Assembly (NCBI GenBank): GCA_963778905.1
Contig: CAVZWH010000007.1
Location: 1 to 53,052 of the forward strand
Direction of reading: 5' to 3'
Length of the DNA stretch: 53,052 bases
Source: Candidatus Staskawiczbacteria bacterium
Lineage (GTDB): Bacteria; Patescibacteriota; Minisyncoccia; Minisyncoccales; Staskawiczbacteraceae
Part shown: one piece after another, positions 34,220 to 34,447 of the stretch
How the letters are laid out: each line of letters begins with the position of its first letter
Numbering within the stretch: position 1 is the stretch's first letter
Notes under the pieces: generated by a model
What the model saw: the letters and a program-made list of their open reading frames with translations, nothing else
Database searches by the model: none
What the model was told of the DNA's origin: nothing
Position numbers and translations under genes: made by a program

Positions 34220-34447
34220 GATTGCGATTCCTTCTTGGTGACTGAAGTGGTTTGGACAGACAAGTGCCTCTTCTCTGCCCGACCCCTCAAACCTGCTGTC
34301 AACGACAGCGCTTTCTATTCATAAGCAGTTCCTCCGGTGTTTGAATCTTCCACACCCAAACACAAAGAAGATCACCTCCTTTCCTTTGCTTTAGTTAACA
34401 ATGAGCACGCCACACGAATTACCTCCTTTCCGTGGCGTTTATTATTT
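34220..34447 (-). promoter_or_regulatory. GGA-rich structured leader or CsrB-like RNA with three SD-led micro-ORFs
   Basis: Eight GGA motifs on the minus strand, several in hairpin loops. SD plus GTG/ATG give MWRAHC*, MFGCGRFKHRRNCL* and MNRKRCR*. Confidence 0.5.

Follow-up and report, generated by a model that had tools for sequence, protein, structure and literature searches.

A GC-rich cassette and its predicted transcript

We analyzed a stretch of 53,052 nucleotides (nt) from Candidatus (Ca.) Staskawiczbacteria bacterium (contig CAVZWH010000007.1 of assembly GCA_963778905.1), hereafter the window. An initial annotation had flagged 228 nt of it as a CsrB-like array of GGA triplets with a chain of Cys/Arg-rich micro-open reading frames (micro-ORFs). 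All features flagged by that annotation lie on the minus strand, as do those described below unless noted. The promoter that it had called near-consensus is indeed so: a sigma-70-type TTGACT-17-TATAAT (34482..34454) matching the consensus at 11 of 12 positions, with a predicted transcription start near 34447. Judged from such signals, the flagged 228 nt (about 34447..34220) are the 5′ leader of a predicted strongly promoted, monocistronic, GC-rich mRNA. Its main ORF of 88 codons (34219..33953) encodes an orphan basic protein, and a pyrimidine-rich 3′ untranslated region (UTR) of 32 nt separates the ORF stop codon from an intrinsic terminator. The subject of this work is a Shine-Dalgarno (SD) tract of unusual length and position within this leader.

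The terminator was recognized from sequence and fold and consists of the stem GGGGUCGCAUCGCAUCGCGUUGCAACCCC (33920..33892) and a run of eight U (33890..33883). An automated scan missed it (33883..33920) because the loop exceeds the limit of the scan; the scan found no terminator inside the leader on the minus strand. Equivalent terminators are located 3′ of the ORF in homologous loci.

The 88-aa product is basic and comprises three helices and, after them, a disordered Lys/Arg tail (...KPPCKKRSIRS). An AlphaFold2 model gave a confident three-helix core (mean predicted local distance difference test score 81.5) and a disordered basic tail. No homologue was detected by a single-sequence protein search, and only a profile search succeeded: a profile from seven such ORFs led to 44 cluster representatives of 77-148 aa (alignment A3), with the family pattern MSKTI.SHRRL..EQ.EFI...A..LNG.A....L.R.F...FG.....AVRRLL.G..NGNG...KPKCKRRSVRS. 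The ratio of nonsynonymous to synonymous substitution rates was 0.14-0.5 in eight pairs, pointing to purifying selection, and by this measure of conservation the main ORF is a real gene. Searches of Pfam, PHROGs, PADLOC and PDB sequences, and Foldseek comparisons with PDB and BFVD, gave no significant match; faint hints (E about 0.01-0.03) of a homeodomain-like helix-turn-helix were all that appeared. The gene thus belongs to an orphan, fast-evolving and previously undescribed family of small basic proteins. Some of its members (L088, P0005 and P0026; 141-151 aa) are tandem duplications of the helical core of roughly 65 aa.

Pattern and profile searches identified about 30 distinct homologous loci in the taxonomic family to which Ca. 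Staskawiczbacteria belongs. Their sources are genomes bearing the label Ca. Staskawiczbacteria, Parcubacteria or Patescibacteria, as well as groundwater-type metagenomes; the window's own genome has no second copy. The loci share a common plan of promoter, leader, hairpin, SD, ORF of 64-151 aa (mostly 80-110), CU-rich 3′ UTR and terminator. Leaders were compared in a set of 22 with lengths of 123-285 nt. The promoters of 21 of the 22 homologous loci score 10-12 of 12, the remaining locus (L036) being on a contig that ends inside the leader. In several pairs, leader identity equals or exceeds that of the coding sequence (CDS), as in L041 and L071 (86% for the leader versus 67% for the CDS), and BLAST revealed a conserved block of 28 nt upstream of equally placed ORFs in relatives. 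The search patterns included neither the long SD tract nor the 3′ UTR, and the recurrence of both is thus unbiased. By comparison, many loci were retrieved with a pattern holding both arms of the hairpin, which biases pairing statistics for that hairpin, and the loci are phylogenetically related, which makes all p-values given below optimistic.

The cassette forms a GC island. GC content is 54-61% in windows across the ORF and 58% in the CDS, with a value of 0.73 at third codon positions (GC3), and the mRNA as a whole has about 58% GC in a host genome of 741 kb with 36.5% GC. As a cause of this island, we considered a structured non-coding RNA of large size, such as OLE, ROOL or GOLLD, and rejected it in view of the protein-level conservation of the ORF. 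Both the leader (z=-3.0) and the whole transcript (z=-4.6) fold better than shuffled versions. No Rfam family reached its gathering score in the region; an E-value threshold returned only chance-level matches to SNORA81 and CC2171 (RF01867). The latter carries a tract GAAAGGAGGUGAUC(C), and its weak cmscan match aligns to the long SD tract alone. At 11.6 bits against a gathering score of 75 (E=6.6) our element is not a member, and, unlike CC2171, it resides in an mRNA leader rather than in a stand-alone small RNA. With regard to a phage origin, the conserved-hairpin pattern had 0 matches in viral contigs; a double-SD pattern did give matches there.

On one side the cassette is flanked by a divergent pth and on the other by a co-directional lepB (Peptidase_S26) with its own promoter. 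The next ORF starts in a lepB-like manner, as in the window, in those homologous loci whose downstream flank was read. The lepB promoter, TTGCAA-N17-TAAAAT with an extended -10 element (..AAAAAUAUGAUAAAAU), lies just past the cassette terminator (33826-33854, minus strand) and in all homologous loci; its conservation indicates that the cassette sits inserted between two autonomous housekeeping promoters.

An orphan Shine-Dalgarno tract and its complements

Judged by its conservation, the probable functional core of the leader is the orphan tract GGAAAGGAGGUGAUC (34384..34370), a perfect 14-15-nt complement of the 3′ tail of 16S rRNA that we call the super-SD. The reference for this tail is the 16S gene of a locus-bearing relative in the same family (G033), which ends ...GGAUCACCUCCUU. 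In the window, the predicted duplex with the tail has an energy of -24.7 kcal/mol and the tract is located 164 nt before the AUG; across the family the super-SD occurs 90-180 nt upstream of the AUG and its usual sequence is GGAGGUGAUC, often continued by ..AUCUAG. The initial annotation had noted the strength of the SD-like tracts, and they are far from chance: 19 of the 22 homologous leaders carry a super-SD whose predicted duplex with the 16S tail has an energy of -20 to -25 kcal/mol. From base composition, the 14-mer GAAAGGAGGTGATC is expected about 0.003 times in its own genome. A third GGAGGTGAT in this genome (contig C17, position 36792) is antisense to AT-rich coding DNA and was judged a chance occurrence. 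In 17 of 21 leaders no start codon is present 4-12 nt downstream of the super-SD.

Ordinary genes of the host, an ultra-small bacterium of the CPR group, show a different picture. An SD core (GGAG, GAGG or AGGA) occurs at positions -20 to -1 in 7.9% of 572 long ORFs, with the first ATG taken as the start codon, versus 9.3% in a background window, and these genes therefore show no SD enrichment. The fact that the family keeps an anti-SD tail while ordinary host genes lack such enrichment bears on the role of the anti-SD in SD-poor bacteria. By eye, several strongly SD-led genes lie in or near GC-rich islands (e.g., C17:13452-15128).

The GGA triplets were the signal that first drew attention to the region. 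Eight are present, with last bases at 34229, 34330, 34333, 34349, 34377, 34382, 34424 and 34429, just as reported, compared with 5.6 +/- 1.7 in dinucleotide shuffles (p=0.13). Homologous leaders have 3-9 GGA each, mostly at expectation, so that the array as such is no signal. In addition, GGAGG is replaced by GGGGG in the super-SD of L005, L016, L036, L037, L049 and L073 and in the upstream SDs of L008 and L043, a change that keeps pairing with 16S rRNA through G-U pairs while GGA is lost. The GGA triplets are by-products of purine-rich SD-like tracts.

A second complement of the super-SD is found within the same mRNA. In nearly every locus a CU-rich tract occurs between stop codon and terminator; in the window it is UAUCUCGUCCUUUUC (33942..33928), a mimic of the 16S tail and the predicted partner of the super-SD. 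Near copies of the 16S tail are present in the 3′ UTRs of L071 (CUGAUCACCUCUUUUU), L041 (GAUCACCCUUCUUUUU) and L087 (GAUCAUCGCCUUUC). The window duplex between 5′ and 3′ tracts, at -14.8 kcal/mol, falls within the lowest 0.5% of 562 ordinary 3′ flanks of the genome, and 3′ flanks of the loci average -13.5 kcal/mol compared to -6.1 kcal/mol for these 562 (Mann-Whitney p=2.6e-14). When each 3′ UTR was shuffled with dinucleotides preserved, 6 of 18 loci had p<0.05, with a Fisher combination of about 1e-7. Own 3′ UTRs also pair with their own super-SD better than foreign 3′ UTRs do (permutation p=0.003, with a modest effect size).

Changes on the two sides are matched in some loci. L049 combines the 5′ variant GGAAGGGGGGAUCU with the 3′ variant AGAUCCCGCCUUUC (-27.9 kcal/mol), and L068 and L071 differ on both sides (GAUU/AAUC versus GAUC/GAUC). 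In partition-function calculations, the super-SD pairs with a 3′-UTR segment of ~25 nt at a probability of at least 0.3 in 14 of 20 loci, with a mean of 0.45 and a value of 0.73 in the window. The 5′ tract is far better conserved than its 3′ partner, which suggests that it also answers to a second, invariant partner, namely the real 16S tail.

Between the super-SD and the ORF lies a conserved hairpin, GGGCAGAGAAG-AGGCA-CUUGUCUGUCC (34280..34254). Its 5′ arm and loop form the block CAGAGAAGRGGCA, invariant in 26 loci, and its 3′ arm varies with pairing kept; L078 and L087 have a mini-hairpin inserted in the loop and retain the outer stem. About 30 nt after the block follows the SD of the main ORF, here termed the true SD, AAGAAGGAAU in the window (34227..34236); in nearly all loci its consensus, GAAGGAAUC, is found at a distance of about 7-9 nt from the AUG. 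Its strength is moderate, the predicted duplex with the 16S tail having about -9 to -12 kcal/mol (about -10 in the window), and it is predicted to be unpaired, with an unpaired probability of 0.83 in the window and a mean of 0.51 in full-length partition functions. A UCAC(C) motif lies between hairpin and true SD in the window (34237-34245, minus strand), with equivalents in L002, L037, L041, L054 and L071; folding models indicate that it may serve as a local partner of the super-SD before the 3′ UTR is transcribed.

The same hairpin and spacer (GGGGCAGAGAAGAGGCAUUUUCUGUCC..AUCACAUUUUCA) were also observed 5′ of a 167-aa Sigma70_r2-like gene in two GC-rich, phage- or plasmid-like contigs (L054:1-1335 and L070:1-3939), where this gene is followed by an SNF2 helicase and a ribbon-helix-helix protein. 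Hence, this hairpin module also occurs outside the small-protein family.

Upstream of the super-SD, the window has a first SD tract, ACGGAAAGGAGGUA (34433..34420; predicted -17.7 kcal/mol with the 16S tail), whose GGAGG is exposed in the loop of a 5′-proximal hairpin, ACGCCAC...GUGGCGU (34407..34438), in minimum free energy (MFE) folds. A similar arrangement, with the SD in a hairpin loop and the start codon in the 3′ arm, is present in L067. This SD leads an upstream ORF (uORF1) of GUG plus 13 codons (MACSLLTKAKERR; 34413..34372), whose UGA stop codon (34374..34372) lies inside the super-SD. Eleven loci have an ordinary SD upstream of the super-SD, and all 11 have a start codon 5-11 nt further on. 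In six of them (the window, L005, L037, L043, L067 and L069) a uORF of 13-16 codons ends at the UGA of the super-SD, inside GGUGAUC; in L010 it ends at a UAA in the second SD, and in three further loci at a UAG or UAA 11 nt later, so that 10 of 11 end in the element or 11 nt after it. Overall, uORFs occur in about half of the loci, ten loci have none upstream of the super-SD, and the peptide sequences of uORFs are not conserved.

Three micro-ORFs of 6, 14 and 7 codons, each after an SD-like tract, had been described in the leader and are all present. The 6-aa ORF (34415..34395) uses a reading frame other than that of uORF1. The other two belong to a variable middle part of the leader (34299..34363), in which the 14-aa ORF (34363..34319) overlaps by AUGA the 7-aa ORF MNRKRCR (34322..34299). 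This part also contains a hairpin, GUGUUUGGGU-GUGGAAG-AUUCAAACAC (34363..34337), a weak SD, CCGGAGGAA (34336..34328), and, partly inside it, a small hairpin, GCUGUCGUUGACAGC (34309..34295). In L004, L008, L012, L016, L041 and L068 the corresponding SD is followed by a mini-uORF of 2-9 codons; in L010, L036, L050 and L053 it is not. Among the three loops in which GGA triplets had been placed, those closed by ACGCCAC/GUGGCGU and by GUGUUUGGGU and AUUCAAACAC are part of the MFE fold, and the proposed CAAAGGA/UUCUUUG stem is absent from it. Instead, the second SD tract has the 3′ UTR as its partner in the MFE fold of the full transcript; a fold of the leader by itself pairs it with GUCACC, upstream of the true SD.

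Proposed closure and ribosome docking compared with other explanations

These observations are, on balance, best accommodated by a device that would combine ribosome docking and mRNA closure, similar to STAB-SD elements and to hbs mRNA, and we consider this explanation probable, if by no great measure. Two partners would compete for the super-SD in a mutually exclusive manner, i.e., the CU-rich copy in the 3′ UTR and the anti-SD of the 30S subunit. Pairing with the 3′ UTR would close the mRNA into a 5′/3′ panhandle, with the moderate true SD remaining accessible. In about half of the loci, the 30S subunit would arrive by translation of a uORF of ~13 codons with its UGA inside the super-SD; the ribosome would terminate on the super-SD and may stay docked there. 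Both closure and the docked ribosome could then shield the mRNA from decay enzymes of the Bacillus type. A local ORF scan followed by NCBIfam searches showed that the genome encodes both RNase J (TIGR00649, 477 bits with a cut-off of 400) and RNase Y (TIGR03319, 604 bits). Since either pairing precludes the other, both the state of the mRNA and its level would hinge on how many ribosomes offer a free anti-SD; the direction of such regulation is conjectural. The proposal that the region is a ribosome-loading leader, one of three interpretations offered initially, comes closest to the comparative data with regard to the orphan 14-15-nt complement of the 16S tail and the uORFs that end on it.

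Both halves of this device have precedents. In Bacillus subtilis, hbs mRNA is stabilized by a 14-bp interaction of its 5′ UTR with its 3′ UTR and by protection from the initiating ribosome: a ribosome at the strong SD blocks RNase J1 and masks RNase Y sites, and the 5′/3′ duplex shields cleavage sites (Braun, Durand and Condon 2017, PMC5737220). Like hbs, the transcript described here would be a monocistronic mRNA with a structured 5′ UTR that encodes a small basic protein in a genome with both RNases. However, the SD of hbs is its own initiation site, whereas here the putative strong SD stands orphaned 90-180 nt upstream of the AUG; in addition, the 3′ partner is a copy of the 16S tail and the proteins are unrelated. 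In cry3Aa mRNA of B. thuringiensis, the STAB-SD, an SD-like GAAAGGAGG in the 5′ UTR, is far from the start codon and does not initiate translation (Agaisse and Lereclus 1996, as cited in PMC12970973); the citing paper describes it as thought to bind 30S subunits and to extend mRNA life. A remote 5′-UTR tract complementary to the 16S 3′ end is likewise present here, in a host with RNase J. In contrast to STAB-SD, the super-SD is longer (14-15 versus 9 nt), is often fed by a terminating uORF, has an intramolecular partner in the 3′ UTR and occurs in a genome that shows no SD enrichment at its ordinary genes. In icaR mRNA of Staphylococcus aureus, a 3′ UTR with an anti-SD motif pairs with the 5′ UTR (Ruiz de los Mozos et al. 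2013, PMC3868564). In icaR, this pairing engages a functional SD and leads to repression and cleavage by RNase III, whereas here it would engage an orphan super-SD and leave the functional SD open. In the present loci, 5′/3′ complementarity of the hbs and icaR kind (about 10 bp or more) goes beyond chance, with covariation between the two tracts.

To our knowledge, examples of orphan SD elements and of 5′/3′-UTR pairing are limited to a few mRNAs of Firmicutes. Here the two devices would occur together, across about 30 loci, joined by uORFs that end on the orphan SD. Such loci could offer a natural system for separating SD docking from 5′/3′ pairing by means of compensatory mutations.

Several observations weigh against this explanation. 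The existence, start and 3′ end of the transcript are deduced from consensus signals, and all pairings are thermodynamic predictions. The window's own assembly lacks a 16S gene, and the tail was taken from G033. In the window, TTG and GTG are present 9-11 nt after the super-SD, which may therefore also start ORFs of 14 or 16 codons. The window's 5′/3′ duplex is of moderate strength (p=0.05 against shuffles, rank 8 of 19 in the swap test), and for 6 of 20 loci the predictions give the super-SD a different partner. In folds of the leader by itself, GGUGA of the super-SD pairs with GUCACC near the true SD, and this pairing competes with the 3′ UTR. The ending of uORFs on the super-SD is only weakly beyond chance, given that two of three frames stop within 20 nt. 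Finally, the homologues L085, L088 and L091 lack the elaborate leader, which is therefore not indispensable for the gene. Two of these, L088 (in G012) and L085, are in genomes that lack csrA and have short AT-rich leaders with neither hairpin nor super-SD.

The docking and closure device can be extended to a closed-loop sensor of ribosome state, in which the anti-SD copy of the 3′ UTR and the real anti-SD of the 30S subunit are weighed against each other on one super-SD. We regard this as a speculative and rather improbable extension. If it were true, only ribosomes with an exposed anti-SD would open the loop, perhaps a sub-population such as ribosomes without bS21, and the cassette would read out or park that pool. 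Ribosomes that terminate near the 5′/3′ junction might also return straight to the leader. A link between bS21 and an exposed anti-SD has been described for Flavobacteriia.

Among explanations of a different kind, control by CsrA survives best, and we consider it unlikely. CsrA, whose gene lies at a distance of 17 kb in the window (51396-51551, minus strand; 69 aa; PF02599, 88.6 bits with a cut-off of 27) in a similar GC-rich cassette with its own promoter, would bind GGA or AAGGA in the loop of 34433..34420, in the super-SD and in the true SD AAGGAAU. In doing so it would repress or tune translation of uORF and main ORF, or be titrated by an abundant leader. The placement of the first SD tract in a hairpin loop and the presence of AAGGA in the true SD of nearly all loci fit this explanation, features also shared with CsrA-repressed leaders such as B. 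subtilis hag and with CsrB/RsmZ, where GGA tracts stand partly in loops. The gene distribution fits it in part: csrA is found in 12 of 15 family genomes with the locus versus 9 of 22 without it (Fisher p about 0.02, uncorrected for phylogeny), and the homologues in csrA-lacking genomes (L085 in G023 and L088 in G012) are those without hairpin and super-SD; yet three genomes have the locus and no csrA, and nine have csrA and no locus.

The tracts themselves argue against CsrA. GGA is enriched neither in the window leader nor in homologous leaders, at least six super-SDs and two upstream SDs read GGGGG and have no GGA, and the prediction for the super-SD is pairing with the 3′ UTR rather than exposure in a small loop. 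Conservation extends through GGUGAUC, which completes the 16S complement and corresponds to no known need of CsrA. A CsrA dimer bridges roughly 10-63 nt. In the window, about 100 nt separate the true SD from the next GGA upstream, more than this span, and the conserved hairpin that lies between them has no conserved GGA. The proposal of the initial annotation, a CsrB-like RNA that sequesters CsrA, is not supported in that form. In contrast to CsrB/RsmZ, the RNA is not non-coding, since the predicted transcript does not end before the conserved ORF but enters it; GGA is neither enriched nor conserved, with GGG in its place in at least six conserved tracts; conservation through GGUGAUC fits the 16S tail and not the CsrA consensus; and only two tracts are in loops of the MFE fold. 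A GGA-rich leader near csrA is by itself no evidence for a CsrA sponge.

A uORF-driven switch, of the kind known from ermC and cat attenuation, appears somewhat less likely still. SD-like tracts would then be ordinary initiation sites of uORFs whose translation or stalling remodels the leader and sets translation of the main ORF, with mRNA stability being irrelevant. The 11 of 11 start codons after upstream SDs would be expected under such a switch, as would the uORF length of 13-16 codons kept in seven loci, the mini-uORFs after a downstream SD in six loci and the alternative pairings of the super-SD with the 3′ UTR or with GUCACC next to the true SD. It offers no role, however, for the orphan SD or the 3′-UTR mimic: the most conserved tract, the super-SD, is the one without a start codon in 17 of 21 leaders. 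Unlike in ermC or cat attenuators, the SD of the main ORF is predicted to be mostly unpaired rather than sequestered (0.51 on average and 0.83 in the window), and the ten loci that lack a uORF upstream of the super-SD, together with the lack of peptide conservation, also argue against it.

The SD-like tracts could also be functionless relics of a cassette imported from a GC-rich, SD-using donor, which we find very unlikely. The GC content (about 58% versus 36.5%) and the GC3 of 0.73 look foreign, the host shows no SD enrichment, and hairpin and spacer recur 5′ of the sigma-like gene of the phage- or plasmid-like L054 and L070. However, the locus occupies the same place, before a lepB-like start where this was read, in several genera with 15-40% protein identity; it is thus old, and super-SD, hairpin and 3′ mimic have nevertheless persisted. 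Leader identity that equals or exceeds CDS identity would not be expected of a relic, and the high GC kept across lineages suggests selection on RNA structure. A GC-rich structured mRNA maintained in AT-rich genomes points to selection on the RNA itself.

Finally, it is most improbable that the micro-ORFs encode real Cys/Arg-rich micropeptides: although the three ORFs exist behind SD-like tracts and several homologues have, after the corresponding SD, ORFs of 5-9 codons beginning M-x-R-(R/K/H) (MNRKRCR, MYRRIRL, MKRRNPC, MRKRGFCQS and MVRHR), none of the three occurs in L036, the closest relative (70% protein identity), or in L002, L053 and L021, lengths vary from 2 to 31 codons, the common C-terminal ERR*/ERG* is a translation of the super-SD (AGGAGGUGA), and Arg codons fall in purine-rich RNA conserved for other reasons.

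Other GC-rich cassettes of the window

The csrA cassette (51290-51656, minus strand) is GC-rich, lies between metG and tatD, and has its own TTGACT-17-TATAAT promoter and terminator. Its leader contains a hairpin with CAAGGAC in the loop and a UUUUCCUCCC tract just 5′ of its SD (AUAAGGAGAC). Among 61 genomes searched, csrA was found in 21 of 37 from the family and in 0 of 24 from other families of the order.

A third cassette of high GC content (17238-17620, plus strand) carries a small gene of 71 aa, and its leader also contains GGAGGTGATC. No CU-rich mimic was found in its 3′ UTR; GGAGGTGATC pairs locally with GGTCATC, with UUGGA as the loop.

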